DNA of 64,000 bases from positions 9,786-73,785 of the forward strand of contig JAWXAZ010000010.1 in assembly GCA_034439755.1 (NCBI GenBank). Reading direction: 5' to 3'. Within the stretch, counting starts at the first letter, position 1; every line of letters begins with the position of its first letter. Origin of the DNA: a bacterium (GTDB taxonomy: Bacteria; Bacteroidota; Bacteroidia; UKL13-3). Under the pieces are notes generated by a model that was given only the letters and a program-made list of their open reading frames with translations, searched no databases and was not told the DNA's origin. The position numbers were made by a program, and so were the translations under genes. Shown one piece after another: positions 6,810 to 56,410 of this stretch.

Positions 6810-6823
6810 TCGGTCTGAACCAA
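6810..6823 (-). repeat. Dispersed motif TTGGTTCARACCGA, exact copy (intergenic)
   Basis: tcggtctgaaccaa on the + strand. Confidence 0.8.
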
Positions 6824-7028
6824 TGGATGGGTTGAAAGTTTTTTACGCTCGATAATTTTGTTGAACCTTCGGCTATAAGAATTTTCATGATCCATCTTTT
6901 GATTTTCCCTTTGGTTTTGTGGCAATGTAGGCACTCAAACAAAAGAGAATTGATCCTATATTGTATAAAGGCCAATGCATTTTAAACCTATCAATAACTC
7001 TCTATCAATTGAATTGTAATCAAATAAT

Positions 7029-7057
7029 TTAAACAAATGATTAATATATTTGATTAA
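7029..7057 (+). promoter_or_regulatory. Probable TetR operator and -7 promoter element
   Basis: Imperfect palindrome TTAAACAAATGATTAA (7029-7044) next to TATATTTG (7045-7052), upstream of the tetR-family gene. Confidence 0.5.
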
Positions 7058-7099
7058 ATTATTTTTTTATGTTTTACTTCCCAGCGGAAATGTATTTTC

Positions 7100-7720
7100 A
7101 TGGCAAAAAAAATTGTACATAGCAAGGAAGATGTTCTTAATACCGAAGCCAAAATTAAACAAGCAGCCCAGGCAGTATTTATGCGCAAAGGCTATGCGGC
7201 TACGCGTACTAGAGTCATTGCCGAGGAAAGCGGAATTAACCTCGCCTTAATTAATTATTATTTTAGAAGCAAAGAGAATTTGTTTAACTTGGTTATGCTC
7301 GATTGTATGAAGGGTTTTATAGGAGGACTCAAGCAAATTCTTAACAGAGAGGATCTGAGTTTGGAAGAAAAATTAGGTGAAATAGTTGCGCATTACCTTA
7401 GCATGTTTAAAAGTCAGCCAGATTTGCCCTTGTTTATCTTGCACGAAATTAGGCATAATCCTAATGGAATAGTTAATACCTTAGGCATGAAACAAACCCT
7501 CACAAAATCGCATTTTTATCAACAGTTAAAGGCCGAAGGTCCACCAAAAATTGACCCCATGCATTTTTTGATGAATATCATTGCCCTCACCGTTTTTCCA
7601 TTTATAGCCTCGCCTTTGTTTAAAATTGTGGGCGATTTGGATGATGCCAATTATATGAAAATGATGAACGATAGAAAAAAATTAATTCCCATTTGGATGA
7701 AACAAATGCTTCAGAAATAG
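7100..7720 (+). CDS. TetR/AcrR family transcriptional regulator
   Basis: N-terminal HTH: KGYAATRTRVIAEESGINLALINYYFRSKENLF. Confidence 0.95.
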   Translation: MAKKIVHSKEDVLNTEAKIKQAAQAVFMRKGYAATRTRVIAEESGINLALINYYFRSKENLFNLVMLDCMKGFIGGLKQILNREDLSLEEKLGEIVAHYLSMFKSQPDLPLFILHEIRHNPNGIVNTLGMKQTLTKSHFYQQLKAEGPPKIDPMHFLMNIIALTVFPFIASPLFKIVGDLDDANYMKMMNDRKKLIPIWMKQMLQK

Positions 7721-7734
7721 TAAAGGTAATTAAC

Positions 7735-9806: not shown

Positions 9807-10067
9807 ATATTACTAATTGGATTATTATTTTAAATCATAACTTTCAAATAGATTACCTAGGAAATAGCAATTTAGGCTAGTTATACCAATTGTGCTAATT
9901 AAATAACCCAAAGTTATTTGATAATTTTACTAGGATAAATGCCGATATAACAAAATAATAGTACAAGGTGATATTTGTCGAATTTGGGCTATATATTTTA
10001 TGTTTTTGGTAGTAGCCTAGCTACTTTTTTAACTATGGCAGATATACTTTAGGTAAAGTACAAACAT

Positions 10068-11038: not shown

Positions 11039-11890
11039 TTAGGAAACTCTTAAGCTTAAATCTATGCTTTTGGAGGAATGTGTAAGCGCCCCAACCGAAA
11101 TAAAATCTACCTCACAGGCCGCATACAATTCAATATTATCAATGGTAATGCCGCCACTGGCCTCCGTCTCAAATCGCTTACCTATTAATTCCACTGCCTC
11201 TTTTAACAACTCCGGCTTAAAGTTGTCTAACATAATTCTATTTACCCCACCTACTTCCAAAACTTGCCTTACTTCTTCCAAATTTCTGGTTTCAATCTCA
11301 ATAGGTAAGTTCAGACCTTTAAATAAAAGATATTGTTTTGTCTTGTCAATGGCCTGTTTAATGCCACCCGCAAAGTCAATGTGGTTGTCTTTTATCATAA
11401 TCATGTCGTACAAACCAATGCGGTGATTTTTACAACCACCTAATTTTACAGCCCATTTTTCTAACAAACGCATACCTGGGGTGGTTTTGCGCGTATCTAA
11501 AATAGTGGTATGATAATCTTTAAGCAAATCAGAAATTTTCTTGCTCTGCGTGGCAATACCGCTTAATCGCTGCATAAAATTTAACACCAAGCGCTCGGCT
11601 GTTAATATGCTTATGTCTGAACCAATAATTTCAAAAATATGGTCTCCTTTAACAATGGCATCACCATCTTTTTTTAAAGGATTATAGATCAGCCCTGAAT
11701 CGATTCTTTTAAAAATATAGGCCGCTAATTCAATACCAGCAATTATACCGTCTTCTTTTGCTATGCAATAAGCTTTGCCCATTTTATCGGCAGGAATACA
11801 AGCCAATGAGCTATGATCTCCGCTGCCTACATCTTCTTTTATGGCAATTTCTATGAGTTCTTTTATGCCGGGATGTTGAAGTAATTCCAT
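11039..11890 (-). CDS. nadC: Nicotinate-nucleotide pyrophosphorylase (carboxylating)
   Basis: DTRKTTPGMR, HRIGLYD, KDNH, MLDNF and EASGG motifs. Confidence 0.97.
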   Translation of the reverse strand: MELLQHPGIKELIEIAIKEDVGSGDHSSLACIPADKMGKAYCIAKEDGIIAGIELAAYIFKRIDSGLIYNPLKKDGDAIVKGDHIFEIIGSDISILTAERLVLNFMQRLSGIATQSKKISDLLKDYHTTILDTRKTTPGMRLLEKWAVKLGGCKNHRIGLYDMIMIKDNHIDFAGGIKQAIDKTKQYLLFKGLNLPIEIETRNLEEVRQVLEVGGVNRIMLDNFKPELLKEAVELIGKRFETEASGGITIDNIELYAACEVDFISVGALTHSSKSIDLSLRVS

Positions 11891-11892: not shown

Positions 11893-13419
11893 TTATTGTG
11901 TTATGTTAATTTCAATTGTATGACTCTTCATAAACTCAATGGTATTTTGAATGTCATCATATAAATATCGGTCGTTTTCTAAGCGAGGTACTAGGCTTCT
12001 GTATTTGCTTAATTCTTCTTCTACTAAAATAGCACTTTTTAGGGGTCTTCTAAATTCAATTGCCTGCGCTGCATTCATATATTCTATAGCCAAAATAGTT
12101 TCCAAATTTTTGCAAATCTTTAACAGTTTTGTGGCGGCATTGGCGCCCATACTCACATGGTCTTCTTGCCCATTGCTACTAACAATGCTGTCTACACTGG
12201 CTGGCGTGCACAATTGCTTGTTCTGACTAACAATGCTAGCTGCCGTGTATTGCGGAATCATAAACCCAGAATTTAAGCCAGGTGTGGTAATTAAAAATGG
12301 CGGCAAATGTCTTAAACCAGATACTAATTGAAAGGTCCTTCTCTCAGAAATATTGCCAAGTTCTGCCAAAGCAATTGCCCAAAAATCAAAGGCCAAAGCC
12401 AAAGGTTGACCATGGAAATTACCGCCCGAAATAATGGTATCCAAATCTGGAAAAATGTTTGGATTATCGGTAACCGAATTCATCTCGGTTAAAACCACTT
12501 TTTCAAAATAAGCAAACGCATCAAAACTGGCTCCATGAACCTGCGGTATGCACCTAAAAGAATAGGGGTCTTGAACCTGTTTCTTGGGCGCTTGTGTCAT
12601 CTCACTGTTGTGCAGAATTTCCATGATCGTTTTAGCCGTTTCTGTCTGACCCAAATGCGGACGCACTTGATGCAATGCCGCGTGAAAGGGCTCTATGCGT
12701 GCATCAAAGGCGTCTATGGATGTAGCTGCAATGAAATTTGCCCAGCCAAAAATTCTTTTCGATTGAAGCAAAACATACAAGCCATAAGCACACATAAATT
12801 GCGTGCCATTTATCAAGGCCAAGCCTTCTTTAGATTGCAATTTTATAGGCTGCCATCCCAGTTCGTTTAATACTAATTGCGACTCAGCCATCACAAATTC
12901 ATCGTCGTTTTCGTCTGACTGAACCCAAACCATTCCTTCGCCAATTAAAGGCAAAGCTAAATGTGCTAAAGGCGCTAAATCTCCGCTGGCACCAAGCGAA
13001 CCTTGATCGTAAATTACTGGGTAAATATCATTGTTAAAGAATTCTATTAAGCGGTCAACAGTTGCCAAACTAACCCCACTATTTCCATAGGAAAGGGATT
13101 GTATTTTGAGCAACAACATAATTTTGATGATGTCTAAATCAACCATCTCCCCCGCGCCACAAGCGTGCGAGCGAAGCAGGTTTTCCTGCAAAGTTTGCAA
13201 GTCGTTATTAGATATTACTGTATCGCAAAGAGATCCAAATCCTGTGTTCACACCATAGATTGGATCACCTCCTTTGGCCATTTTTTCGTCTAGGTAATTT
13301 CTACACGATTCAATAAGTGATTTTGATTCGGCAGAAAGCTTAATTCTTTTTTTATTGTAAAGAATGTCTTGAACATCTGCAATGCTCAATTCGCCTTTTA
13401 TTTCGTATAGCTTATTCAT
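11893..13419 (-). CDS. hutH: Histidine ammonia-lyase
   Basis: YGVNTGFG, MIO-forming GASGDL, QDPYSFRCIPQVHGA and GGNFHGQP; likely start at 13419 overlapping the hisS end. Confidence 0.96.
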   Translation of the reverse strand: MNKLYEIKGELSIADVQDILYNKKRIKLSAESKSLIESCRNYLDEKMAKGGDPIYGVNTGFGSLCDTVISNNDLQTLQENLLRSHACGAGEMVDLDIIKIMLLLKIQSLSYGNSGVSLATVDRLIEFFNNDIYPVIYDQGSLGASGDLAPLAHLALPLIGEGMVWVQSDENDDEFVMAESQLVLNELGWQPIKLQSKEGLALINGTQFMCAYGLYVLLQSKRIFGWANFIAATSIDAFDARIEPFHAALHQVRPHLGQTETAKTIMEILHNSEMTQAPKKQVQDPYSFRCIPQVHGASFDAFAYFEKVVLTEMNSVTDNPNIFPDLDTIISGGNFHGQPLALAFDFWAIALAELGNISERRTFQLVSGLRHLPPFLITTPGLNSGFMIPQYTAASIVSQNKQLCTPASVDSIVSSNGQEDHVSMGANAATKLLKICKNLETILAIEYMNAAQAIEFRRPLKSAILVEEELSKYRSLVPRLENDRYLYDDIQNTIEFMKSHTIEINITQ

Positions 13420-14845
13420 GGTTGAGTAGTTGTATAATTTCTGCAATGCTTAATTCACTTTGTTCACCACTTTGCAAGTTCTTAATCACATATTTTTCTT
13501 TTTCCAATTCGTCTGATCCAACAATGCAGGCATAATCAATTGTTAGTTTATTGGCATACTCCAATTGCTTGCCAATTTTCTTGGTAATATCTGGATAAGC
13601 TTCTGCCGCAATTTGATGGTTTCTTAGCTGGGCACACAAGGATATTGCACGTGCTTGCGTAACTTCATCAAAATAGCAAAATAGAATTTTCGTTTCGTTG
13701 GCTTTAAGGTTGCTTGGAAACAATTGCAATTCTTCCATTACGTCATACATGCGGTCGAGGCCAAAAGAAATACCCACACCCGATATGCCTGGAAGTCCAA
13801 ATATTCCCGTAAGGTTATCATATCTACCCCCGCCACCAATGCTCGATTTAAGGCTTCCCCTTAATGCTTGTACTTCTACAATGGCACCTGTATAGTAGCT
13901 TAAACCTCTTGCGAGGGTTACATCTATTTTAATTGAATTGTGAGGGGTTAAAATGCTTAAATAGTTAAAGACTTCTTTTAACTCGGTGCAACCTAATTTG
14001 CCTTCGTCTAAATGACCTAACATCAACTCCAATTCTTGCAAGGGATTCTCTGCATCAACCAAGGATAAAAATTGAAGAATTTGCTCCACTTGCGGTTGGT
14101 TCAGACCGATATTTTCTAGTGCTGTTTTTACACCGCTTGTGCCAATTTTATCTAACTTGTCTATGGCAACGGTAATGCCCACAAATTTGTTGGCCGCAGC
14201 AATATGAGTGGCTAGGGCACTCAATAATTTTCTGTTGTTAATTTTAATTACAACTGGTATTTGAAGCGCGGTAAATACTTCGTCGTACATTTTTAAAAGT
14301 TCTGCTTCATTAAGCAAACCATTGCTGCCAATTACATCTGCATCGCATTGCCAAAACTCTCGGTAGCGACCTTTTTGCGGCTTGTCTGCGCGCCATACCG
14401 GTTGCATTTGGTAACGCTTAAACGGCAAGGTAATGTCGTTCCTATTCATTACAACATACCTAGCAAAGGGAACAGTTAAGTCGTAACGCAGGCCTTTTTC
14501 TGCAATGAAGGGCAAAGAGATTTTTGAATCTAATTGTGAGATGGTATTGTTAAAAGAGGGAAGATAGGTTTTATCAATTTCTTCGTGGCCTATGCCTTTT
14601 TCTTGATGTTCAATGAGCTTCTTAAGGTAATCGCCCGAGTTCAAAATCTTGAAAAGCAATTGATCTCCCTCATCGCCATACTTGCCTGTAAGCGTTGATA
14701 ATTGCTCCATGGAGGGCGTTTCAAGGGGCATAAATCCATATTTTTTAAAAACAGATTCGATTGTTTGCAGCAGGTATTTTCTGCGTTGCACCGTAAGCGG
14801 ACCAAAATCGCGGGTGCCTTGTGGGAGACTAGGTTTTTGAGCCAT
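13412..14845 (-). CDS. hisS: Histidine--tRNA ligase
   Basis: GTRDF, LRYDLTVP, GRYREFWQCDAD, RGLSYYTG and GGGRYD motifs. Confidence 0.97.
   Translation of the reverse strand: MAQKPSLPQGTRDFGPLTVQRRKYLLQTIESVFKKYGFMPLETPSMEQLSTLTGKYGDEGDQLLFKILNSGDYLKKLIEHQEKGIGHEEIDKTYLPSFNNTISQLDSKISLPFIAEKGLRYDLTVPFARYVVMNRNDITLPFKRYQMQPVWRADKPQKGRYREFWQCDADVIGSNGLLNEAELLKMYDEVFTALQIPVVIKINNRKLLSALATHIAAANKFVGITVAIDKLDKIGTSGVKTALENIGLNQPQVEQILQFLSLVDAENPLQELELMLGHLDEGKLGCTELKEVFNYLSILTPHNSIKIDVTLARGLSYYTGAIVEVQALRGSLKSSIGGGGRYDNLTGIFGLPGISGVGISFGLDRMYDVMEELQLFPSNLKANETKILFCYFDEVTQARAISLCAQLRNHQIAAEAYPDITKKIGKQLEYANKLTIDYACIVGSDELEKEKYVIKNLQSGEQSELSIAEIIQLLNHE
14096..14109 (+). repeat. Dispersed motif TTGGTTCARACCGA, exact copy (inside hisS, antisense)
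   Basis: ttggttcagaccga; reads IGLNQ in HisS. Confidence 0.75.
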
Positions 14846-16129: not shown

Positions 16130-16816
16130 TCATAGTTTTTTCATGCCACCATCTACTGGTAAAATATGTCCACTCACCCAAGTGGCATCCAACAAATAGC
16201 AAATGGCATCCACCATATCTTTCACTTCGCCAATTCGCTTTAATGGATGTCGCTCTGCTGCCCCTTGTAATTTTGTTTCCGAATTTAGTAATTTTTCTGA
16301 TAAAGGCGTTTGTGTTAAAGATGGAGCTATGGCATTTACCCTAATTTTTGGGGCAAACTCAGCTGCCAAAGCTACTGTTAAGCCTTCAATGGCTCCCTTA
16401 GCCCCAGCAATACTCGCATGAAAGGGCATTCCTTTTTGAACTGCCACAGTGCTAAATAATACAATGCTTGGCGTTATGCCTTGTTGTAAATTGGGTAAAT
16501 ATTTTTGGATCGACCTAACTGCTCCTAAATAATTTACCTGAATATCTGCTAAGAAATCGGCTGGTTTTAATCCCCTAAAAGGTTTTAATAGAATGGTACC
16601 CGGACAATAAATTAAACCATCAATGGGCTCAATTATCTCAGGAAAATTTGGCGTTTCCTCGCTTATATCGCATGCATGCCATGATAAAAATTCGGTCTCA
16701 ACCAATTCCTTGCTGCTTCTGCTTAGTACAGTAACTTTATTGTTTAAAGAAATTAAATGGTCGCAAAGGGACTTTCCTATGCCGCTGCTTCCGCCGATGA
16801 TTAAATAATGCTTCAT
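16130..16816 (-). CDS. SDR family oxidoreductase
   Basis: GGSSGIG Rossmann motif, RVNAIAP and VDGG; the catalytic YxxxK appears as IAGAK. Confidence 0.92.
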   Translation of the reverse strand: MKHYLIIGGSSGIGKSLCDHLISLNNKVTVLSRSSKELVETEFLSWHACDISEETPNFPEIIEPIDGLIYCPGTILLKPFRGLKPADFLADIQVNYLGAVRSIQKYLPNLQQGITPSIVLFSTVAVQKGMPFHASIAGAKGAIEGLTVALAAEFAPKIRVNAIAPSLTQTPLSEKLLNSETKLQGAAERHPLKRIGEVKDMVDAICYLLDATWVSGHILPVDGGMKKL

Positions 16817-18256: not shown

Positions 18257-18916
18257 TTAGTCCTCCATTTTGGTTTGAACCAATTCAACCCCAGCCGAAG
18301 TGCCAATTCTATTGGCCCCCGCAGCAACAAGCTCCTCGGCAAACTCTTTTGTTCTGATGCCGCCGGCAGCTTTAATTTGGATTTTAGCCGGTAAGTTTTT
18401 TCTAATCAATTTTACAGCTTCTACTGTTGCTCCCTCAGGGCCATATCCGGTTGAAGTCTTTACAAAATCTGCCTCACAATCAGCACAAATTTTGCAAATT
18501 ATCTTAATTTCATCCTCACTTAAATAACAGGTTTCAATAATTACCTTGGCCAATTTATTTTGCAAATGACAGGCTGTAATCACAGACTGCATGTCGTTCT
18601 GAACCGATGCAATATCGCCACTTTTAAATGCAGCTATATTAATTACCATATCAATTTCATGTGCACCACTCGTAATGGCTTTTTTGGTTTCCTCAACCTT
18701 GCTCGAAACGGTATTATAACCAAAAGGAAATCCAACCACGGTGATGATTTTAACCTCACTTTTCTTAATGGTTTTCTTGGCCAATTGAACATAATAAGGA
18801 GGCACACAAACGCCGTATAAATTATTTTCTACTGCCTCATTGCATAGTTTAATGATATCATCGGCCACGGCAGTGGGCTTTAAATTTGTATGTTCAATGT
18901 GATTTGCTAAGCTCAT
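18257..18916 (-). CDS. deoC: Deoxyribose-phosphate aldolase
   Basis: VVGFPFG, EIDMVIN, KVIIET, FVKTSTG and KAAGGIR motifs. Confidence 0.97.
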   Translation of the reverse strand: MSLANHIEHTNLKPTAVADDIIKLCNEAVENNLYGVCVPPYYVQLAKKTIKKSEVKIITVVGFPFGYNTVSSKVEETKKAITSGAHEIDMVINIAAFKSGDIASVQNDMQSVITACHLQNKLAKVIIETCYLSEDEIKIICKICADCEADFVKTSTGYGPEGATVEAVKLIRKNLPAKIQIKAAGGIRTKEFAEELVAAGANRIGTSAGVELVQTKMED

Positions 18917-18937: not shown

Positions 18938-21900
18938 TTAATTTATTTCATCCTTGCCATGGCAAGATTTATATTTCTTTCCGCTACCACAAGGACAAGC
19001 ATCATTTCTTCCAATCTTAACCACGCCTTTTATTTGAGCAGGTTTTTGAGGCTCTTGTGTGCCTTGCGCAGCAGCTTGGTTATTCCTTTGTGCCTCTGCC
19101 AAATCATCTGTACGCGATGTTTTTAGTCGACTAGTATCAACTCTTTTAGGTTCAACCGCTTGCTTTACTTCTGAAGCATTATCAATTGGAATAAAACCTT
19201 TAAACAACATGCCCAATACTTGCTTGTTAATGCGAGAAAGCATGCTCTTGAATAAATTAAACGATTCTAACTTATAAATTAACAAAGGATCTTTTTGCTC
19301 AAATACTGCATTTTGCGAGCTTTGTTTCAAATCATCCATCTCGCGTAAATGCTCTTTCCAATCATTGTCTATCACAAATAGACTCGCAAATTTTTCATAC
19401 GTTTTGGCAATTTCACGTGCTTCTGTTTCATAGGCTTTCTTTAAATTAACCGGAATCTGCATGTTGTGGATACCATCGCTTATTGGAACAGAAATAGACT
19501 CAAATTGATTGCCCTTATTGTTAAAAACGTCCATTATTACTGGCCAAGCTACCTGGGCCATATCTTGCGTTTTCTTATGGTAATGTGCCAACAATTCTTG
19601 GAACAATTGATCTCCTAAAATCTCCGTTTTTCCGCCTAAAAAATCATCCTCTTTTACACTTGGCTCATGCGCAAAAATTCGCATTACCTCAAATTTAAAC
19701 TCAGCAAAATTTTTCATGTCTTGGTATGTTTCAACCAATTCTTCTGCCGTATCGGCAAGCATGTTGCTTATATCAAGCGCCAACTTATCGCCATACAAAG
19801 CATTGCGGCGTTTGCTATAAATCACCTCTCTTTGAGAGTTCATTACATCGTCATATTCCAACAATCGTTTACGAATGCCAAAGTTGTTTTGTTCAACGCG
19901 TTTTTGCGCACGTTCAATGTTTTTGGTGATCATAGAATGCTCTATATTTTCGCCTTCTTTCATCCCCAATTTATCCATAATGCCTGCAATTCGTTCTGAA
20001 CCAAATAAGCGCATCAAATCATCTTCCAATGAAACATAAAACTTAGATGAACCTGGATCGCCCTGCCTACCTGCTCTACCTCGCAACTGCCTATCAACTC
20101 GCCTGCTCTCATGACGCTCGGTACCAATAATGGCCAAACCTCCTACTTCTTTAACTCCTTCACCTAGCTTAATATCCGTTCCCCTACCAGCCATATTAGT
20201 GGCAATGGTAACGGCACTTTTCTGACCTGCTTCTGCAACAATGTCTGCCTCGCGCTGATGCTGTTTGGCATTCAAAACATTGTGCTTAATTTTTCGCATG
20301 GTAAGCATTCTTCCCAATAACTCACTCACCTCAACCGAGGTAGTACCCACCAATATTGGTCTTCCAGCCTCAGTTAACTTTACAATTTCTTCAATAACCG
20401 CATTGTATTTTTCACGCTTGGTTTTGTAAATTACATCCTCCTCATCCCTTCTCGTAATATTTCTATTGGTTGGAATTTCAACCACGTCTAACTTGTAGAT
20501 TTCCCAGAATTCGCCGGCTTCCGTAGTTGCTGTACCCGTCATTCCACACAACTTATGATACATCCTAAAAAAGTTCTGTAAAGTTACCGTAGCATAAGTT
20601 TGTGTGGCCGCTTCAACCTTCACATTTTCTTTTGCCTCAATGGCCTGATGCAAGCCATCGCTATAACGCCTGCCATCCAATACACGGCCCGTTTGCTCAT
20701 CTACAATCTTAACCTTGCTATCTTGAATAATATACTCCACATCACGGTCGAACATACAATACGCCTTCAACAATTGGTTGATAGTATGAATACGCTCCGA
20801 TTTTATCGTAAAATCAAGCATCAATTGATCTTTGTGCTTAATTTTTTCATCTTCGGGCATATCCGATTTTTCAATTTCGGCAATCTCAGAACCTACATCT
20901 GGAATAATAAAGAAATGTTCATCTTCACCAGAAGCAGTAATTAACTCAACTCCCTTTTCGGTTAAATCTACCGAGTTAATTTTCTCATCAATTACAAAAT
21001 ATAAATCGGCATCAATTTTATGCATTTCCTTTTGTTGGTCTTGCATGTAATAGTTCTCCGTTTTATTTAAAACCTGCCTAACGCCACCCTCTCCTAAGAA
21101 TTTAATCACAGAAGAATGCTTGGGTAATCCACGGTATGCTTGCAATAACTTAAAGCCACCTTCTTTATCATTGTTGGCCGTAAGCATTCTCTTGGCATCA
21201 GCCAATGCAGTGCTTATGTATGATTTTTGTGCCGATACCAATTTCTCAATGCGAGATTTTAAGGCATAAAATTGTTGGTCGTCACCACGCGGAACCGGAC
21301 CAGAAATAATCAATGGCGTTCTAGCATCATCAATCAAAACCGAATCCACCTCATCCACCATAGCATAATGGTGTTTGCGCTGAACCAATTCATCCAAACT
21401 ATTGGCCATATTATCCCTTAGGTAATCAAAACCAAATTCATTGTTGGTACCATAAGTAATATCGGCTTGGTATGCTTTCCTTCTTTCGGCAGAATTTGGC
21501 TGATGGTAATCGATACAATCTACACGCAAACCATGAAATTCAAACAAGGGTCCGTTCCATTCACAGTCACGACGAGCCAAATAATCATTCACCGTTACAA
21601 TATGAACGCCTAGGCCTGCCAATGCATTTAAATAGGAAGGTAGGGTAGAAACCAAGGTTTTTCCCTCACCTGTTGCCATCTCTGCAATTCTACCTTTATG
21701 CAATACCATACCACCAATTAACTGAACATCGTAATGAACCATATTCCAGGTAATTGCTTGTCCGGCTGCCTCCCAAGTATTAGCCCAAATGGCATTATCT
21801 CCTTCAATGGTAACAGGCTTTTTAAACCTAGTCATCGCACTCAATTCTTTATCGTAATCAGTTGCCTTCACCACCAATTGCTTGTTCTCGCTTAACCTTC

Positions 21901-22267
21901 TGGCAGTTTCTTTAATTACCGCAAAAGCCTCAGGCAATATTTCAAGCAATATGAGTTCTAAATCTTGATCTCGCTTTTTCTTAAGCACATCAATGCGCTT
22001 AAACAAGTCGTCCTTTGCCACTAAGTCAATTTCCTCAACTTGTGTTTCAATCTTTATCTCTTCAACTTCATCATCAATTGGCTTTAAGCCAGCAAATATT
22101 TTATCTTTAAAATAGGCTGTTTTCGCCCTTAATTCTTCATCGCTTAAACTGCTTAATATTACATACGCATCATTTACTTGCGCAACTATGGGATTAAGTT
22201 CTTTTAAATCGCGATCCGATTTGCTTCCAAAAATCTTGGTAATTCCTTTAAAAATGCTTCCAATCAT
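18938..22267 (-). CDS. secA: Preprotein translocase subunit SecA
   Basis: MATGEGKT, DEVDS, TNMAGRGTDI, QLRGRAGRQGDPG and C-terminal CPCGSGKKYKSCH; likely start MIGSIFKG at 22267. Confidence 0.98.
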   Translation of the reverse strand: MIGSIFKGITKIFGSKSDRDLKELNPIVAQVNDAYVILSSLSDEELRAKTAYFKDKIFAGLKPIDDEVEEIKIETQVEEIDLVAKDDLFKRIDVLKKKRDQDLELILLEILPEAFAVIKETARRLSENKQLVVKATDYDKELSAMTRFKKPVTIEGDNAIWANTWEAAGQAITWNMVHYDVQLIGGMVLHKGRIAEMATGEGKTLVSTLPSYLNALAGLGVHIVTVNDYLARRDCEWNGPLFEFHGLRVDCIDYHQPNSAERRKAYQADITYGTNNEFGFDYLRDNMANSLDELVQRKHHYAMVDEVDSVLIDDARTPLIISGPVPRGDDQQFYALKSRIEKLVSAQKSYISTALADAKRMLTANNDKEGGFKLLQAYRGLPKHSSVIKFLGEGGVRQVLNKTENYYMQDQQKEMHKIDADLYFVIDEKINSVDLTEKGVELITASGEDEHFFIIPDVGSEIAEIEKSDMPEDEKIKHKDQLMLDFTIKSERIHTINQLLKAYCMFDRDVEYIIQDSKVKIVDEQTGRVLDGRRYSDGLHQAIEAKENVKVEAATQTYATVTLQNFFRMYHKLCGMTGTATTEAGEFWEIYKLDVVEIPTNRNITRRDEEDVIYKTKREKYNAVIEEIVKLTEAGRPILVGTTSVEVSELLGRMLTMRKIKHNVLNAKQHQREADIVAEAGQKSAVTIATNMAGRGTDIKLGEGVKEVGGLAIIGTERHESRRVDRQLRGRAGRQGDPGSSKFYVSLEDDLMRLFGSERIAGIMDKLGMKEGENIEHSMITKNIERAQKRVEQNNFGIRKRLLEYDDVMNSQREVIYSKRRNALYGDKLALDISNMLADTAEELVETYQDMKNFAEFKFEVMRIFAHEPSVKEDDFLGGKTEILGDQLFQELLAHYHKKTQDMAQVAWPVIMDVFNNKGNQFESISVPISDGIHNMQIPVNLKKAYETEAREIAKTYEKFASLFVIDNDWKEHLREMDDLKQSSQNAVFEQKDPLLIYKLESFNLFKSMLSRINKQVLGMLFKGFIPIDNASEVKQAVEPKRVDTSRLKTSRTDDLAEAQRNNQAAAQGTQEPQKPAQIKGVVKIGRNDACPCGSGKKYKSCHGKDEIN

Positions 22268-22601
22268 ATGTGTGGGTTCTCTCTCTATTCCTAAGCAAAC
22301 AAATGCATAGGGCGGTAAATTTATGTTATTTTTCCTTATTGGCATAAATTAATCCAATCTCCTTTTTTGCCATTATGACATGCTATTTTAGGTAGCTTCC
22401 CTGTTTTTCTCGCCATTGATTGGCACAGACAGCTTTTACCTCCTGTTTTTTGGCAGAAAATTGCGCTATTTCTTTTTGTTTTAAATCGTAATTTCTGGAA
22501 AAATCACCTAATAAAGCCATCAATTTGGGCTGAACCAAACGCTTTTTCGCCGAGTTGAATTTAGCAGTAGTTAAACCCTTCTAATCATAGAAAAATTGCA
22601 A

Positions 22602-22616
22602 TTGGTTCAAACCGAA
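22602..22616 (+). repeat. Dispersed motif TTGGTTCARACCGAA, exact copy (intergenic, 2 nt beyond a minus-strand stop codon)
   Basis: ttggttcaaaccgaa. Confidence 0.8.
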
Positions 22617-33241: not shown

Positions 33242-33310
33242 ATTTGTATGGCAAATAAAGAAATTCGAATGAAAAAAGCGATATAAAAAAAATATTCTAT
33301 TTTGCACCAA

Positions 33311-42087: not shown

Positions 42088-42852
42088 CTAGAAATTTTCG
42101 AAAATTCCCAAGCCAAATAACGCAAAATCATATTTTACTGGGTCATTGGGGTCAAGTATTCTTAAGGTCTGATCCAATTCTGCACATGCTTTCGAATCAT
42201 TTTGGTTGCGGGATAATAAGCCTAATTTTCTGGCAATATTACCAGAGTGAACATCCAATGGGCAAGAAAGCTGGGCGGGGCTTATGCTATGCCAAATGCC
42301 AAAGTCTACGCCTTGTTTGTCTTTTCTCACAAACCAGCGTAGCATCATGTTTATTCTTTTTGCAGAGGAACCTTTCTGGGGGTCTGATACGTGTTTGGTG
42401 GTTCTTAAAGGATGTGGAATTTCAAAAAACACTTTTTTGAATTCGCTGATGGCCACTTGCAAATTGTCTGGTTTGGCGTATTTGTTAAACACACCTTCTA
42501 AGCCTCTGTGATTCTTATAAACATGCCTAAGACCTTTTATAAAATATTGGTAATCTTGGCCGCAAAAGGTTCTGTGAACAAAATGGTCTAATTTATTCAA
42601 ATGATTTTGTTTAGCAGATAGCACAAAATCGTGCGGACTTTCACCCAATAAATCGAGCATTTTATGTGCGTTTTTGACAATGGTTTTTCTGTTTCCCCAA
42701 GATATGGTGGCTGCTAGAAACCCCGATATTTCAATGTCCTCTTTGCGTGAATACCTGTGAGGAATGCTAATGGGGTCTGTTTCAATAAAGTTTAACTGAT
42801 TGTATTGCTCAACCTTTTGGTTCAAAAATGCTCTTATTTCTGAATCTACCAT
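42088..42852 (-). CDS. TIGR02757 / DUF2400 family protein
   Basis: DPISIPH, KRINMMLRWFVR, PLDVH and DPVKYDFALFG. Confidence 0.92.
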   Translation of the reverse strand: MVDSEIRAFLNQKVEQYNQLNFIETDPISIPHRYSRKEDIEISGFLAATISWGNRKTIVKNAHKMLDLLGESPHDFVLSAKQNHLNKLDHFVHRTFCGQDYQYFIKGLRHVYKNHRGLEGVFNKYAKPDNLQVAISEFKKVFFEIPHPLRTTKHVSDPQKGSSAKRINMMLRWFVRKDKQGVDFGIWHSISPAQLSCPLDVHSGNIARKLGLLSRNQNDSKACAELDQTLRILDPNDPVKYDFALFGLGIFENF

Positions 42853-42962
42853 AAAATTTCTTTTGGTATTGAATCCATAAAATTATAAGTAAGATTACTC
42901 ATGTTTTTGCAAAGTAGGGTTACCCGAAAATCAAAGCCTGTAGCCACTTTTTTTTAAAGGGT

Positions 42963-43211
42963 TTATGGGAGGAATTTGTATAATTCGCGTACCTTATTTA
43001 TTACATGAATGAACAGCAATGCTGGCCAGATGAGGGCGCTTTGGGATGTATAGTTTACTAAAATGATGCTCACCAAAACGCCTATGTTAAAACTTGCCAC
43101 CACAATGTATAAGAGTTGAAATCGTGGGTTATTGGTATTGGTAAAGGAAAGCGCCGCAAAGACCAATAGCAGTAAAACAGAAATGATGGAAATGATATAA
43201 GCTATGTTCAT
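42963..43211 (-). CDS. Small hypothetical membrane protein
   Basis: 82-aa ATG ORF with three hydrophobic segments filling an intergenic gap. Confidence 0.6.
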   Translation of the reverse strand: MNIAYIISIISVLLLLVFAALSFTNTNNPRFQLLYIVVASFNIGVLVSIILVNYTSQSALIWPALLFIHVINKVRELYKFLP

Positions 43212-43309: not shown

Positions 43310-44791
43310 ATGAGATATTCAATTTCAATTGCTGAACCAAAAGAGCATTTTGTGGGAATGTTTGCGGAAATAGGTAATCCGAGCAAAGAAGCCTTTCAAC
43401 TTCAACTACCTTCTTGGCGTCCGGGTAGGTATGAGTTAGGGAACTTTGCCAAGAATATTCGAAAATTGAGCATCACAAATGAGCTAGGAGTTCCTGTTTA
43501 TTATGGCAAAATTTCGAAGGATTGTTGGCAGGTTGATGCAGAAGGTTTAAGCAAGGTAATTTTACAATATGAATATTATGCCAACCAGCCTGATGCGGGT
43601 GCTAGCTTTGTGGATGCAGAATTAATTTACCTAAACCCAGTAAATTGTTTTATGTATGTGGTGGGTAGAATGTTTGAGGGGTTTGAGCTACAATTGAATA
43701 TTCCAGATACCTGGCAAATTGCTTGTCAGCTTCCATCTAGCAACAAGTGTATTTTTGCAAAGGATTTTGATGAATTGGCCGATAGCCCGTTTTTTGCTTC
43801 GCCAAATATGGTTCACCATCAATTTGCATTAGGCGAATCGAACATTCATTTTTGGTTTCAAGGGGGTGCGGGTCCAGACTTGGTTAAACTCGAGGAGGAT
43901 ACCCGCAAATATGCTTTGGTTCAGACCGAAATTTTTGGAGAATTACCCGTAAAAAATTACCACTTTCTGTATTTGTTGCTGGCCGATAAATTTAGGCATG
44001 GCGTTGAGCATAAGGATTCAACGGTGATTGCCATGGGTCCATCGACCGGTTTTGCAGAGAAGACTTTTTACAATGATTTTTTGGCGATAAGTTCGCACGA
44101 ATTATTTCATTTGTGGAATGTGAAAAGGATGCGGCCGCAGGAAATGTTGCCTTATGATTTTACCCAGGAAAATTATTCTCGTTTGGGGTATATTTATGAG
44201 GGAATTACTACTTATTATGGTGATTTAATGTTATGGCGTTGTGGTGTTTGGAGTTTTGAGGAGTATGCGAGCAGTTTGGCAGGTGATATTGAGAGGCATT
44301 TAAACAACAGCGGCCGGTTTAATTATTCCTTGGCTGAGTCTAGTTTTGATACTTGGTTAGATGGGTACGTTCCTGGGGTAAAGGGCAGAAAGGTTTCGAT
44401 TTATATGGAGGGATTATTGGCTGCTTTGGTGGCTGATGTGGAAATAATGGTTGCCACAGATTGTAAGGCAAATTTGAATACCGTTTTAACTAAATTATAC
44501 CAAGAATCGTTTAAGAAGGGCAGGGGATATTCGCAGGAAATGTACCAAGCAATTTTGGAGGAAATTTCGGGTATTTCGTTCAAAAGCTATTTTTCTGACT
44601 TGATTGATGGATGTGGGCGTTGGGAATTTTACCTAGAAAAAATATATGACAAACTTGGTTTAGAGGTATTGATTGTTGATAATGAGGGGTCTGCGATAAC
44701 CTGCAGTGTTAAAAGGTGTGAGAATACAACGGAAATGCAAGATAAAATCTTTGAATATTGGTTTAATTGCACTTATTTTGAGGGTACTTAG
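43310..44791 (+). CDS. M61 family metallopeptidase
   Basis: PSWRPGRY, GVEH, HELFHLWNVKR zinc motif and EGITTYY. Confidence 0.93.
   Translation: MRYSISIAEPKEHFVGMFAEIGNPSKEAFQLQLPSWRPGRYELGNFAKNIRKLSITNELGVPVYYGKISKDCWQVDAEGLSKVILQYEYYANQPDAGASFVDAELIYLNPVNCFMYVVGRMFEGFELQLNIPDTWQIACQLPSSNKCIFAKDFDELADSPFFASPNMVHHQFALGESNIHFWFQGGAGPDLVKLEEDTRKYALVQTEIFGELPVKNYHFLYLLLADKFRHGVEHKDSTVIAMGPSTGFAEKTFYNDFLAISSHELFHLWNVKRMRPQEMLPYDFTQENYSRLGYIYEGITTYYGDLMLWRCGVWSFEEYASSLAGDIERHLNNSGRFNYSLAESSFDTWLDGYVPGVKGRKVSIYMEGLLAALVADVEIMVATDCKANLNTVLTKLYQESFKKGRGYSQEMYQAILEEISGISFKSYFSDLIDGCGRWEFYLEKIYDKLGLEVLIVDNEGSAITCSVKRCENTTEMQDKIFEYWFNCTYFEGT
43916..43930 (+). repeat. Dispersed motif TTGGTTCARACCGAA, exact copy (coding)
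   Basis: ttggttcagaccgaa; reads LVQTE. Confidence 0.75.
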
Positions 44792-52537: not shown

Positions 52538-54010
52538 ATGAAAAGTGCAGAGCCATTGGCTGATGAACATTTTAGGGATGAATTATCAAATGTAGATAGG
52601 GATGGAAAAAGATTGTTCATTTTTCCTAAAAAACCAAAAGGGAAGTATTACGATTATAGAACATGGTTTAGTTGGTTTTTAATGGCATTGATGTTCTCTG
52701 GACCATTTTTAAAATTTGAAGGAAAACCGCTGCTTTTATTAAATGTTTTAGAAAGAAAGTTTATCATATTTGGTATGGTATTTTGGCCTCAAGACCTCAA
52801 TTTATTTGCCGTTTTGATGTTATCATTTGTGCTATTCATTGTTTTGTTTACAGTCCTATTCGGGCGTGTTTGGTGCGGTTGGGCTTGCCCGCAAACCATT
52901 TTTATGGAAATGCTCTTTAGAAAGGTTGAATACCTGATTGATGGCGATTACCAGAAGCAAAAAAAATTAAAGGAGCAAAATTGGAATGGTGAGAAAATAT
53001 TTAAACGGGGTTTAAAACATACCACATTTTGGATTTTATCTTTCCTTATAGCCAATACCTTTTTAGGATATATCATTGGCATTGATGAGCTAAAATTACT
53101 CGTAGTGGATGGGCCTATGGCACACATGGGAAAATTTGCTTCGTTATTAATTTTTACAACGGTATTTTATTTTGTATTTGCCCATTTGCGCGAATTGGTT
53201 TGTATTTTTATTTGTCCTTATGGCCGCTTGCAAGGATTGATGCTAGATAAGAATTCAATGGTGGTTGCCTACGATTTTGTGAGGGGCGAACCAAGAGGTA
53301 AAATAAAAAAACATGAGGAAGAAGCACCAAAAGGCGATTGTATCGATTGTAAACTTTGTGTGCATGTTTGTCCTACTGGCATCGACATTAGAAATGGCAC
53401 GCAGTTAGAATGTATAAATTGTACGGCTTGTATTGACGCTTGCGATGAGGTAATGGTTAAGATAGACAAGCCAAAAGGCTTAGTGCGGTTTGCTTCACTT
53501 AATAACATCAATGAAGGCACAAAATTAGGTCTGAACCTAAGAAATGGCGCTTACGGAATTGTTTTAGCATTGTTGTTTGGCGTTTTCCTTTACATGCTAA
53601 TCACTAGAAAGCAAATTGAAACAACCCTGTTGCGTACACCTGGCATGCTATACCAAAAACAAGAAGAGGGTAAAATAAGTAACTTATACAGCATCGAATT
53701 CGTTAACAAAACCTTTAAGGAATTGCCAATAGAACTAAAACTGATTGAACCAAAAGGCGAAATTCGTTTAGTGGATGGACAGTCGATTATGGTTCATAAA
53801 GAGACCGTTGGTAAATCTTCTTTCTTTTTGGTAATCAATGCCAATGAAGTGAAAAGAGTTTCTACACCTGTGGTTGTGGAAGTATGGAGCGATGGAAAAC
53901 TAATTGAAACCATGAATTCGAAGTTTAATGGCCCTATTTTTTCTGCTCATAAAGACTCCGAAGAGGAACACGAAAAGGATAAAGTTGACCATGATAAGGA
54001 TAAGAAATAA
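52538..54010 (+). CDS. ccoG: Cytochrome c oxidase accessory protein
   Basis: GRVWCGWACPQT, CPYGRLQ and two 4Fe-4S motifs (CIDCKLCVHVCP, CINCTACIDAC). Confidence 0.96.
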   Translation: MKSAEPLADEHFRDELSNVDRDGKRLFIFPKKPKGKYYDYRTWFSWFLMALMFSGPFLKFEGKPLLLLNVLERKFIIFGMVFWPQDLNLFAVLMLSFVLFIVLFTVLFGRVWCGWACPQTIFMEMLFRKVEYLIDGDYQKQKKLKEQNWNGEKIFKRGLKHTTFWILSFLIANTFLGYIIGIDELKLLVVDGPMAHMGKFASLLIFTTVFYFVFAHLRELVCIFICPYGRLQGLMLDKNSMVVAYDFVRGEPRGKIKKHEEEAPKGDCIDCKLCVHVCPTGIDIRNGTQLECINCTACIDACDEVMVKIDKPKGLVRFASLNNINEGTKLGLNLRNGAYGIVLALLFGVFLYMLITRKQIETTLLRTPGMLYQKQEEGKISNLYSIEFVNKTFKELPIELKLIEPKGEIRLVDGQSIMVHKETVGKSSFFLVINANEVKRVSTPVVVEVWSDGKLIETMNSKFNGPIFSAHKDSEEEHEKDKVDHDKDKK

Positions 54011-54059
54011 AAGGATTAGTTAGCTATATTTGAAAGGATTTAAATAAACTTAACAGATA

Positions 54060-54515
54060 ATGATTAAAATAAATTGGGGAACCAAATTGGCGTTTTTTGC
54101 TATATTATTCATGATTTTTGTGGTAAGCATGGTGGTGGTGATATCTAGGCAAGATATGCCATTGGTAGAAGACGATTATTACGAAAAGGGCATAAATTAT
54201 CAAACTCAAATAGACAATTTTGCACAAGTAGATAGCCTTATTACCATGGAAATTGGTAACATGCAAAATGGAAGTGAAGATAAAGGCAAAACCTTGTTCA
54301 TAGAAAAGAAATCGGATGGAGATATTGAGAATGCAGAATTGTTTTATTACAGACCCTCGGATTCGAAATTAGACCAGCATCAAAGGCTCCCATTGCCCTC
54401 AAAGAAACTCATTGCTTTGCCATTAAACGATCTTATGCCAGGCAAATGGATTATTAAATTTACTTGGATGCAAGGCGATAAAAAATTCGAATTGCAGAAA
54501 GAGTTCGACCGCTAA
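54060..54515 (+). CDS. ccoH: FixH/CcoH family protein
   Basis: INWGT, one TM segment, LVEDDYYEKG and YRPSD. Confidence 0.88.
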   Translation: MIKINWGTKLAFFAILFMIFVVSMVVVISRQDMPLVEDDYYEKGINYQTQIDNFAQVDSLITMEIGNMQNGSEDKGKTLFIEKKSDGDIENAELFYYRPSDSKLDQHQRLPLPSKKLIALPLNDLMPGKWIIKFTWMQGDKKFELQKEFDR

Positions 54516-55210
54516 TGTTGTTTCTCACAGCCTTTCTCACCGGTTTGTTTGGAAGCTTTCATTGCGCTGGAATGTGCGGCCCAATTGCTTTTGCCCTGCC
54601 AGGTAGCGCAAGTAATGGCGCAAAATTTTACCTAGGAAGGCTATTGTATAATTTTGGAAGAATGTTTAGCTATGCCCTTTTGGGGCTGGTATTTGGCGCA
54701 TTTGGACTCGGTTTAAAATTGGCAGGTTGGCAGCAATCGGTTAGCATTGCCGCAGGCATATTCATACTTTTTATAGTATTATACCAATACTATTTTAAAA
54801 AAGGAAGCTTCTTTAACATACTCTCCCTCTTTTCGAGTAGTGCTGTGAAAAAATTGTTTGGCTCAAAAAATATTTGGGCCTTATTTGGCATTGGAATGGT
54901 GAATGGATTCTTACCATGCGGCTTCGTTTATATAGCCATTTTAGGCGCAAGTACCACCCAAGATTTGTTCTATGGTGCATTGTTTATGCTGTGTTTTGGA
55001 CTAGGCACCCTGCCTATGATGTTTGGGGTTTCCATTATTGGCCAATTTATTTCATCAGGTATTCGACAAAAGTTGAATAAATTAAGTCCGGTTTTTGCCA
55101 TACTCATAGCCATTTTATTCATACTTCGCGGCCTAAATTTAGGCATCCCTTATGTTAGTCCGGTTATTGCTACCGACCAAGAAAAAATAGAAAACTGCGA
55201 TTCGCACTAA
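54515..55210 (+). CDS. DsbD_2 / TauE-SafE-like membrane protein of cco loci
   Basis: HCAGMCGPI, YNFGR, GFLPCGFVY and FGLGTLP. Confidence 0.9.
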   Translation: MLFLTAFLTGLFGSFHCAGMCGPIAFALPGSASNGAKFYLGRLLYNFGRMFSYALLGLVFGAFGLGLKLAGWQQSVSIAAGIFILFIVLYQYYFKKGSFFNILSLFSSSAVKKLFGSKNIWALFGIGMVNGFLPCGFVYIAILGASTTQDLFYGALFMLCFGLGTLPMMFGVSIIGQFISSGIRQKLNKLSPVFAILIAILFILRGLNLGIPYVSPVIATDQEKIENCDSH

Positions 55211-55252
55211 TATTTTGTTATCCTTGTTGCATCAATTAGTTTTGCAAAGTCA

Positions 55253-56410
55253 ATGGGGTTTAAATGGAAGCGCTATTTTAGGTTAAGAAGGTGGGTTAAA
55301 AGTATTTCTTTTTTCCTGTCTGATCCTATTGCGCCTTTGATAACCATTGATTCGGATGGCCGTAAACATTTGCTGCTTATTAAAACCGAAGCCATAGGAG
55401 ATTATATTCTTTTTAGAAATTTTCTTCAAAGTGTGCGAGAAAGTGAAGCCTACAAAGACCACCACATTAGCTTAATTGGCAATGAAATTTGGAAGCCACT
55501 CTTTCAAAAATTAGACCTTAATTATGTGGATACCGCTTATTTTATAAACCGCAATTTGTTTATGACGGTGGCAAGCTATCGCAAAGATTTCTTTAATAAT
55601 TTTAACACCATAAACTTTAATGCCATCGTAAATTGTACCCACTCTCGTGAGTTTCTGTTGGGCGATTTAATGGTGCGTGCTTTGGCCAGCAAAAACAAGA
55701 TTGGCATGGAAGGCGACTCGGTTAGTGAGATACCACCACTTAAACTTTTAGGCAATACCTTTTACACACGCTTAATTGGTTCAAACCGAAATAACTACTT
55801 TGAATTTGCGCGAAACAAACATTTTTTTGAGCAGTTGTTATCTACTAAAATTTCACTTAATTATCCGCAAATTGAACACGAAGAAGTAGCGAAAAAATTT
55901 GTGGTGATGTTACCTGGTGCGCAAGATAAAGTGCGCCAATGGCCTAGTGAAAGGTTTAAAGAATTGGCACAAAAAATACATGATGTGCATGGTTACGAAA
56001 TTATTTTATCTGGCTCAGCGGCAGAAAAGGCAGCAGCAGAATTAATTTTGGATGCAGAAAATGCTGCTTATATTAAGAATTTTTGTGGTGTAACCGCCTT
56101 GGGCGATTTGCCTAAACTCCTTGCTGGTGCGGTGTTGGCGATTTGCAATGATTCTGGAACTTTACACATGGCAGCGGCTTTAAATGTGCCTACTGTGTGT
56201 ATTTCAAATGGCAATCATTATGGTAGATTTTCACCTTATCCAGAGGCAAAAGGGCGTAAATTAGCTTTTTTATATCCACCTTCTTTTTTAGCTGAATATG
56301 AAAGTGAAGATGCCCGCAGAAAAGAGATGGCTTTTGGCTCAAGATATACAATTGCTTCTATTGGAGTGGAGGAAGCGTGGCTTGTTATAGAAAGGATATT
56401 GAATGACTGA
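55253..56410 (+). CDS. Glycosyltransferase family 9 (heptosyltransferase-like)
   Basis: AIGDYIL, PGA...RQWP and NDSGTLHMAAALNVP. Confidence 0.92.
   Translation: MGFKWKRYFRLRRWVKSISFFLSDPIAPLITIDSDGRKHLLLIKTEAIGDYILFRNFLQSVRESEAYKDHHISLIGNEIWKPLFQKLDLNYVDTAYFINRNLFMTVASYRKDFFNNFNTINFNAIVNCTHSREFLLGDLMVRALASKNKIGMEGDSVSEIPPLKLLGNTFYTRLIGSNRNNYFEFARNKHFFEQLLSTKISLNYPQIEHEEVAKKFVVMLPGAQDKVRQWPSERFKELAQKIHDVHGYEIILSGSAAEKAAAELILDAENAAYIKNFCGVTALGDLPKLLAGAVLAICNDSGTLHMAAALNVPTVCISNGNHYGRFSPYPEAKGRKLAFLYPPSFLAEYESEDARRKEMAFGSRYTIASIGVEEAWLVIERILND
55776..55790 (+). repeat. Dispersed motif TTGGTTCARACCGAA, exact copy (coding)
   Basis: ttggttcaaaccgaa; reads IGSNRN. Confidence 0.75.

Follow-up and report, generated by a model that had tools for sequence, protein, structure and literature searches.

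The DNA word TTGGTTCARACCGA of an uncultured genus of freshwater Bacteroidia, a hyper-abundant motif and possible uptake-type signal

The 14-nt word TTGGTTCARACCGA is hyper-abundant in the genome of an uncultured freshwater member of the Bacteroidia and restricted to its genus. It is described here from a stretch of 64 kb (the window; C10:9786–73785 of the assembly designated G000), from the whole assembly and from related genomes. Its over-representation is due to a force acting on DNA, not on protein. The signal, TTGGTTCARACCGAA, is read tentatively, with confidence a little short of even, as a genus-specific mark of 'self' DNA of the type of DNA uptake sequences (DUS) and uptake signal sequences (USS), which would have spread by biased uptake and recombination. 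This reading is drawn from eight genome-level properties shared with DUS and USS: hyper-abundance, nucleotide-level origin, strand neutrality, position neutrality, clade restriction, dialects, a graded halo of mismatched copies and absence from an acquired island. All eight are observed.

No description of the motif, or of any uptake sequence in Bacteroidota, was found in the literature searched; the motif strings matched only unrelated papers. An earlier reading of the window from its letters alone (the sequence-only reading) had likewise not recognised the word as a known signal, and had proposed an undescribed Bacteroidota system. The lack of an earlier description stands. A Bacteroidota-wide feature it is not: it belongs to one genus, with a weaker occurrence in genus g29.

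Abundance, anatomy and window copies

The genome of the window, G000, has a size of 3.59 Mb in 149 contigs, is 95.9% complete and has a G + C content of 37.5%, near the 36% or so estimated in the sequence-only reading. TTGGTTCARACCGA(AA) is its most over-represented word family. Pieces of the motif make up the commonest 10-mers and 12-mers by raw count and all of the top 16 8-mers by z-score under an order-4 Markov model. That model expects 161 copies of TGGTTCAG, 43 of GTTCAGAC and 21 of TCAGACCG; 1113, 565 and 320 are observed. The exact 14-mer is present in 254 copies, 115 (+) and 139 (−), or 1 per 14 kb. To these 254 exact sites, mismatched ones add 483 (one mismatch) and 802 (two); the corresponding numbers in two order-5 Markov genomes trained on G000 itself are 1–2, 9–13 and 131–142. 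With up to 2 mismatches counted, the density rises to 1 per 2.4 kb.

Coding does not account for the excess. Synonymous codons were permuted within each of 2801 crude genes based on open reading frames (ORFs), with proteins and per-gene codon usage kept. Over 10 shuffles the 14-mer occurs 6.3 ± 1.7 times within genes (maximum 9), against 160 observed, and TGGTTCAG 118 times, against 961. The enrichment survives both of the backgrounds, Markov and codon-preserving, against which the sequence-only reading had proposed a genome-wide count. Genic copies use all five stop-free reading frames. Shuffles and frames together place the force at the level of DNA.

By the crude gene set, which makes 88% of the genome coding, exact copies are sense (85), antisense (75), intergenic (90) or across a gene end (4). 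Most are thus genic (160 of 254, 63%), while intergenic DNA, 12% of bases, holds 35% of them, an enrichment of about threefold. Intergenic copies are evenly spread over the four arrangements of flanking genes (22, 20, 23 and 19), without orientation preference relative to these genes and without a fixed distance to start codons, all of which disfavours a promoter, operator or RNA element.

In the logo, built from 238 de-duplicated exact sites, information is confined to the 14-mer and its near surroundings: a weak G (−3) and C (−2) before it and, after it, A at +15 (0.82) and +16 (0.68) with a mildly A-rich tail to about +20. Among one-mismatch sites (n = 483), positions 1, 3, 4, 6 and 9 are nearly invariant (1, 0, 3, 0 and 5 cases); positions 13, 14, 2, 8, 5 and 12 are tolerant (101, 80, 69, 54, 53 and 44 cases). 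The motif is a strict core, T.GG.TC.R, with a weaker 3' part. The sequence-only reading had called it quasi-palindromic. Inverted-repeat arms are present (TTGGT-N4-ACCGA), but tolerance by position reveals a functionally asymmetric signal behind them, left arm near-invariant, right arm tolerant.

The arms, TTGGT and ACCGA round a 4-nt centre, speak for an alternative, the in-situ binding site of an abundant genus-specific DNA-binding protein on the resident chromosome, maintained by weak selection at many sites. Its role might be nucleoid compaction, a self-DNA mark for defence or repair, or a methylation-linked signal like highly iterated palindrome 1 (HIP1) of cyanobacteria. This alternative, the main rival, is considered unlikely. 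Perfect palindromic variants TTGGTTCGAACCAA, which dominate in congeners G016 and G003, agree with it; the motif of G000 is an imperfect, asymmetric palindrome. Against it, conservation is asymmetric. A symmetric dimer would not leave such a pattern, in which the near-invariant left arm faces the most tolerant part of the word, positions 12, 13 and 14.

The window holds exactly 7 exact copies of TTGGTTCARACCGA; 0 copies occur in any of 100 dinucleotide shuffles. A near-copy scan of the whole window gives 24 matches with up to 2 mismatches (shuffle mean 0.80, maximum 3).

Exact copies:
6810–6823 (−): G variant then A; intergenic, between divergent CrcB (6386–6757, −) and a TetR-family gene (7100–7720, +)
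14096–14109 (+): G variant then T; antisense in HisS (13412–14845, −), gene strand ATC GGT CTG AAC CAA (IGLNQ)
22602–22615 (+): A variant; intergenic, 3 nt past the stop of ORF 22619–23305 (−), upstream of SecA (18938–22345, −)
25407–25420 (+): G variant; sense in ORF 25007–26515 (+, without Pfam family), TTT GGT TCA GAC CGA (FGSDR)
32205–32218 (+): A variant; intergenic, 3 nt past the MurB stop (32222–33319, −), upstream of an RlmD-like methyltransferase gene (30705–32162, −)
43916–43929 (+): G variant; sense in an M61 peptidase gene (43310–44791, +)
55776–55789 (+): A variant; sense in a family-9 glycosyltransferase (GT9) gene (55253–56410, +)

One-mismatch copies:
16692–16705 (−): TTGGTTGAGACCGA; in ORF 16130–16816 (−)
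18270–18283 (−): TTGGTTCAAACCAA; in ORF 18257–18916 (−)
19991–20004 (−): TTGGTTCAGAACGA; in SecA (−)
26000–26013 (−): TTGGTTCGAACCGA, the CG 'palindromic' variant; antisense in ORF 25007–26515
34022–34035 (+): TCGGTTCAAACCGA; in ORF 33302–35200 (+)

Two-mismatch copies:
92–105 (+): TTGGTTCAGCCCTA
4553–4566 (+): TTGGTTCAAAATGA
6337–6350 (−): TTGGTTAGAACCGA
11612–11625 (−): TTGGTTCAGACATA
12641–12654 (−): TTGGGTCAGACAGA
18594–18607 (−): TCGGTTCAGAACGA
22525–22538 (−): TTGGTTCAGCCCAA; inverted relative to the exact copy at 22602, 64 nt away
26629–26642 (+): TTGGTTCGGCCCGA
33882–33895 (−): TAGGTTCAAACCGC
53526–53539 (−): TAGGTTCAGACCTA
59248–59261 (−): TAGGTTCAAACAGA
61660–61673 (+): TTGGTTCAGGCCGT

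All seven exact copies lie at the positions and on the strands given by the sequence-only reading. Its one-mismatch copies at 18270, 19991, 26000 and 34022 are present (the one at 16692 had been overlooked), and its weaker copies are real two-mismatch sites (6337, 18594, 22525, 26629 and 61660). It was right, too, that A follows six of the seven exact copies, T following that at 14096; that hosts are unrelated genes in different frames, HisS and the FGSDR gene among them, and intergenic spacers; and that flanks lack similarity, which holds past about 20 nt. Repeat finding loses all similarity around copies within 20 nt, and an Rfam scan of the window returned the small signal recognition particle (SRP) RNA only. 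The copies thus do not belong to a longer known element, the possibility that the sequence-only reading had set against its own proposal; a longer hidden element and a known RNA are ruled out on the same grounds.

Other repeats were recorded. A tandem array with a unit of 25 nt and at least 13 units (2690–3010) lies in the window between the small SRP RNA gene (2452–2558, +) and the downstream ORF 3167–4603. This ORF is flanked by a 48-nt element in three copies (3061–3108, 3113–3160 and 4593–4640), whose inverted ends read TAA.T.GCTAAAT ... AGCGAGTTATAAA. A non-coding sequence of 129 nt occurs twice, inverted and 88% complementary, in spacers 28.7 kb apart (9883–10011 and 38679–38807); it may be a dispersed repeat. 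In the whole of G000, heptamer tandem arrays (TTATGAA/TTATGAG)n form 44 clusters (e.g. C3:18552–18657, C111:12–261 and C62:5497–5730) and are the next most abundant long words after the motif. Many of these clusters sit at the end of a contig and have probably interrupted assembly there.

Range, origin and placement

The genus carrying the motif (g1, 25 genomes) consists of uncultured freshwater Bacteroidia. All 24 other genomes of the genus contain the exact 14-mer (5–642 copies). So do 11 of 94 genomes of the other 16 genera of the family (1–2 copies each) and 1 of 16 genomes of other families (a single copy); reversed-pattern controls give 0–2. The pan-dialect core TTGGTTCRRACC occurs in all 25 genomes of the genus, at 30–1210 copies (reversed controls 0–14). 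In 93 genomes of other genera it stays at control level, with 0–18 copies against 0–10 in controls. G103, the sole genome of genus g29, has a density about tenfold lower than g1, yet its 46 copies (reversed control 1) clearly exceed those of the remaining genera, so that the signal may extend to, or decay in, this neighbouring genus. Samples of 79–118 kb from G056 and G054 (g19), G102 (g28) and G127 (g33) hold no core enrichment and no comparable word. Records with many separate matches in a scan of the whole collection are uncultured metagenome-assembled genomes of Bacteroidia/Bacteroidetes.

The 3' halves of the word differ among species of the genus. Favoured forms are:
G000: ...CAGACCGAA
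G005 and G017: ...CAAACCGAA
G004: ...CAG[A/C]CCAAA
G003 and G016: ...CAGC and palindromic ...CGAACC

Replacement words in species with few copies were considered and dropped, as they have no extended context: GATCAGGT in G012, the top over-represented 8-mer of its first 50 kb (C4:1–50000; 15 vs 3.0 expected, a small sample), and GGCTTTGG in G021.

Origin was read from orthologues. The codon alignment of ORF 25007–26515 covers 30 loci, 24 of genus g1 and 6 of the sister genus g19, without insertion or deletion at the motif site. The peptide RRFG[ST][DEN]R is found in g19 also, where 5 of the 6 loci encode it as TTY GGN ACN GAN AGR/CGC (e.g. TTC GGT ACA GAA AGA). The exact 14-mer (TTT GGT TCA GAC/AAC CGA) stands in 7 of the 24 g1 loci, and the CG variant in 2 more. 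Only G000 and its closest relative, G018, share the one-mismatch site at 26000, in a variable part of the same ORF. The HisS alignment comprises 22 g1 loci, 7 of g19 and 1 of g27. The motif is at the same place in 4 of the 22 g1 loci (G000, G022, G016 and G017) and four codons upstream, in opposite orientation, in 3 (G001, G008 and G004); it is absent from the remaining 15 g1 loci and from each of the 8 non-g1 loci. Across the two sets of 30 loci no insertion or deletion is found at the three coding sites. These alignments establish recurrent origin and turnover: the motif arises repeatedly by point substitution in tolerant protein segments and is neither inserted nor fixed in position.

The same alignments bear on a miniature mobile element or repetitive extragenic palindromic (REP)-like repeat, spread by a transposase such as the REP-associated tyrosine transposase (RAYT). 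In its favour, the motif is a short quasi-palindrome in hundreds of copies, threefold enriched between genes and sometimes in close inverted pairs. It is very improbable nonetheless: the three coding sites are free of insertions and deletions, 160 of the 254 exact copies are genic and in five frames, flanks are not conserved past two A's, and no Y1 (IS200/RAYT) transposase was found in G000. REP/RAYT elements and miniature inverted-repeat transposable elements (MITEs) were rejected on these four points.

Placement in G000 is non-polar. Motif strand agrees with local GC skew at 113 sites and disagrees at 107; it follows the majority gene strand at 126 and opposes it at 128; adjacent sites share orientation in 71 cases and differ in 84. 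Sites with up to 2 mismatches, collapsed to 1501, have a mean of 4.1 per 10 kb (variance/mean 1.12; 8 of 278 intervals empty). The largest site-free stretch is 23 kb, against about 17.5 kb expected, and nearly all long contigs have sites. G004:C1, at 895 kb the longest contig that the genus offers and a third of the G004 genome, carries 83 loci with every 100-kb bin filled (5–19), a coefficient of variation of gaps of 1.07 and a runs test of z = 0.72. Placement is near-Poisson, non-polar and without domain structure; the assemblies are fragmented and ori/ter not placed.

A strand-polar or domain-restricted chromosome signal is scarcely credible on this evidence, be it Chi, the FtsK- or SpoIIIE-orienting KOPS/SRS, matS, parS or Noc/SlmA sites. 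The word is over-represented and dispersed, as such a signal would be, and the last six exact copies of the window stand consecutively on the + strand. Near-copies in the window are mostly on the − strand, however, and no correlation is found with GC skew, gene strand or neighbouring sites, or along the 895 kb of G004. Every bin of that contig is occupied, the largest gap in G000 is 23 kb, and the motif is genus-restricted, whereas the other signals are conserved across families. Chi and KOPS were rejected for lack of co-orientation with the replication proxy (GC skew) or on the G004 contig; matS, parS, Noc and SlmA sites were rejected for lack of domain confinement or exclusion and for the single ParB of G000, with ori/ter unplaced. 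In the mapping scheme of density and strand laid out in the sequence-only reading, a uniform and non-polar word points to the DUS-like branch rather than to those for matS, SlmA/Noc or KOPS/Chi.

The two largest deserts were annotated. The first, C117:55.9–79.2 kb, is a BREX/McrBC/methylase defence island; the second, C21:29.5–47.9 kb, is the ribosomal-protein operon from elongation factor EF-G to RpoA. That both are motif-free fits slow accumulation in resident DNA where coding constraint permits. Genes recorded in the island, over motif-free C117:59240–79239, encode BrxL, an Eco57I/MmeI-like methylase, a McrBC pair, a YhcG PDDEXK nuclease, a DUF5655 protein and a Schlafen/AlbA_2-HATPase protein.

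Possible roles and DNA-import genes

Under the uptake-type reading, a sequence-specific receptor of a DNA import route would prefer fragments bearing the core T-GG-TC-R with the weaker ACCGAA and A-rich tail. The route would most likely be natural transformation via ComEA-like, ComEC, ComF-like and DprA proteins. Fragments with the word would be imported and recombined more often, point mutations creating it would spread in the population, and it would build up wherever coding constraint permits, in both orientations and all frames. The genome has most features of a DUS or USS system: over-representation beyond composition and coding; both orientations, non-polar and chromosome-wide; clade restriction with dialects; point-mutation origin at three coding sites and scarcity in acquired DNA, as judged from the two annotated deserts. 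The core genes ComEC, DprA, ComEA and ComF are represented, the ComF-like one under cut-off, and they are not specific to competent species. A type IV pilus or pseudopilus machine with receptor was not found in G000 (95.9% complete).

ComEC of G000 (C122:55101–57155, 684 aa) has DUF4131 and Competence domains and no C-terminal metallo-beta-lactamase domain at E ≤ 1e-5. DprA, a ComEA-like protein of 240 aa with two helix-hairpin-helix (HhH) motifs, a ComF-like ORF (97.6 bits, under the equivalog cut-off) and a DUF1343/NamZ homologue are present. All 25 genomes of the genus have intact ComEC and ComEA-like genes. No competence cluster lies near ComEC or the ComEA-like gene. Since ComEC, DprA and ComEA-like genes are nearly universal, non-competent controls included, their presence adds little.

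One two-gene locus was looked at as a source of the receptor. At C140:11114–13957, P0003 lies upstream of P0001 in an apparent operon. P0003 (272 aa), which by eye resembles a small barrel, carries a signal peptide and matches no Pfam family. The 673 residues of P0001 include a signal peptide, a ComEA-like HhH domain at the N-terminal end and a long region rich in beta structure. P0001 is about 9–10 kb from the ComEA-like gene in at least 6 genomes of the genus checked. It is conceivable that P0001 is an outer-membrane DNA-handling protein. As specific receptor it was dropped, being present across the family (113 of 119 genomes) and not genus-specific; its protein family is uncharacterised and widespread in Bacteroidota/Ignavibacteriota.

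Several observations weigh against uptake. Neither a T2SSE/PilB-type ATPase over cut-off, nor a secretin, nor a DUF5689 homologue of the Riemerella surface protein was found in G000 at its 95.9% completeness, from which it follows that a receptor would be new; no genus-specific candidate for it was found. Intact ComEC and ComEA-like genes accompany 30 motif copies as well as 1210, so that copy number does not track the genes, and ComEC, DprA and ComEA-like genes also occur in non-competent control genomes. Exact copies are rarer than those of classical DUS and USS, which number about 1 per kb; 1 per 2.4 kb is attained only by the family of up to 2 mismatches. Close inverted pairs that could form hairpins exist (e.g. 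C125:4854, C116:11299 and C122:18412), but pairs within 50 nt reach only about 1.5 times the density expectation (25 vs about 16, calculated from pair-count data). The inverted-repeat arms suggest a dimeric binding protein, and the genus is uncultured. Finally, at least five unrelated non-coding tandem arrays with one motif per unit recall iteron- or centromere-like clusters of binding sites:
C121:63.6–64.2 kb (63600–64250): unit 51 bp, alternating with units without motif core
C130:3.2–3.6 kb (3150–3650): unit 44 bp
C26:42.8–43.1 kb (42780–43100): unit 105 bp
C122:68.4 kb to contig end (68410–68539): unit 57 bp
C147:25.8 kb (25810–25982): unit 68 bp

The arrays are compatible with 'more signal, more uptake' and with clusters of binding sites alike. 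For the in-situ binding protein they are a point in favour, as are the outer-membrane uptake machinery not detected in G000 and the precedent of HIP1, which is hyper-abundant across a lineage, inside and outside coding DNA, and whose role is described as debated in the available parts of PMC5861425 and PMC4390886. It is opposed by sites that turn over among species and flip orientation within one HisS protein loop, by near-Poisson placement without domain structure and by 40-fold variation in copy number among congeners. G000 has a single ParB and no second, Noc-like paralogue, and no candidate protein was identified.

A molecular drive of another kind, without transformation, is rather improbable. 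It might be a bias of mismatch repair or gene conversion, resembling very short patch (VSP) repair or driven by a nickase, or a preference in packaging or mobilisation by a resident transfer element, like pac or the transfer origin oriT. Point-substitution origin against codon preference, the genus-restricted distribution and the lack of a detected pilus-type machine would all agree with it. One ORF has a match to Por_Secre_tail, the sorting domain of type IX secretion, under the Pfam cut-off; it hints at that secretion system and has no link to DNA. No enzyme or element was identified, however. The scan of viral contigs returned 115 stretches, and of the 80 listed 79 have a single copy and 1 two adjacent copies; this is chance level and shows no phage with arrays, and pac- or cos-like arrays were dropped. 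A nick or transfer origin is expected to be directional, yet no polarity is found. Known repair biases act on words of 4–5 bases, not 15.

The uptake-type reading has a further, bolder form: that this is the first DUS system outside Proteobacteria, the genus marking its own DNA with TTGGTTCARACCGAA and importing it by a pilus-independent machine, whose sequence-specific receptor would belong to a new family and co-evolve with the dialects. It is offered with reserve, as a possibility somewhat under even. Detailed knowledge of sequence-specific DNA uptake is confined to Neisseriaceae and Pasteurellaceae, where the process depends on type IV pili. If the bolder form is true, it would suggest that self-preferring DNA exchange evolved independently on different hardware. 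The 15-mer is a concrete bait for the DNA receptor of Bacteroidota without pili. It is also a marker for DNA of the lineage in freshwater metagenomes and for resident as opposed to acquired DNA.

Comparison with known systems

Chi, KOPS, matS, parS, Noc and SlmA sites are, like the motif, dispersed over-represented words, read by proteins on the chromosome. They are strand-polar or confined to or excluded from domains, occur tens to about a thousand times and are shared by wide ranges of taxa; the motif is non-polar, uniform and genus-restricted. REP sequences and bacterial interspersed mosaic elements (BIMEs) with RAYT are similar as short imperfect palindromes, hundreds per genome, species- or genus-specific and enriched between genes. 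REPs are essentially extragenic, whereas 63% of copies here are genic, orthologues show no insertions and the Y1 transposase is lacking in G000.

Riemerella is of the same phylum and also without type IV pili. R. anatipestifer transforms without them, which shows a pilus-independent uptake route in Bacteroidota, and requires ComEC, DprA, ComF, RecA, an HhH protein, DUF1343 and a DUF5689 surface protein with a partner outer-membrane barrel, according to the part of PMC8459023 available. G000 has homologues of ComEC, DprA, ComF (ComF-like), the HhH protein and DUF1343/NamZ; unlike in Riemerella, the essential DUF5689 surface protein was not found. R. columbina prefers its own DNA, and the sections of PMC7965970 at hand identify no uptake sequence and report A-rich words only, no discrete motif, from a k-mer survey.

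The DUS of Neisseriaceae is likewise a short, hyper-abundant word, found inside and outside coding DNA and in either orientation, accumulating in resident DNA and missing from an acquired island. The motif here is another sequence in another phylum, longer (15–16 nt) and quasi-palindromic, its exact copies less dense than those of Neisseria and its pairing into terminator-like inverted repeats weak. Shared too are taxon restriction and clade-specific dialects round a conserved core, as outlined in the accessible text of PMC3630211. In Neisseria the receptor route is the minor pilin ComP (PMC3868556, in excerpt). This route cannot apply in G000, where neither a type IV pilus ATPase nor a secretin was found.

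The USS of Pasteurellaceae resembles the motif in its strict core with a weaker flank and A-rich tail and in that most copies are genic, in several frames. It differs in sequence, phylum and pilus machinery, absent here as far as found. Spacing is Poisson-like here and notably even in Haemophilus. Both have a graded halo of one-off and two-off sites, such as a balance between mutation and drive would produce (PMC3458573, as far as its text was available).

HIP1 of cyanobacteria is similarly shared by a whole lineage, exceeds expectation in genes and spacers alike and is maintained at the level of nucleotides, with a role long unresolved. Recent work ties it to horizontal transfer and to the efficiency of transformation (bioRxiv 10.1101/2024.09.10.611283 and PMC13756078, both in part). 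HIP1 is a perfect 8-base palindrome with orphan methyltransferases and a phylum-wide range; the motif is 15 nt long, asymmetric and genus-wide only. Were it an in-situ binding site after all, it would pose a HIP1-like puzzle in a second phylum. Under either reading it is the strongest sequence signal in the genomes of its genus.

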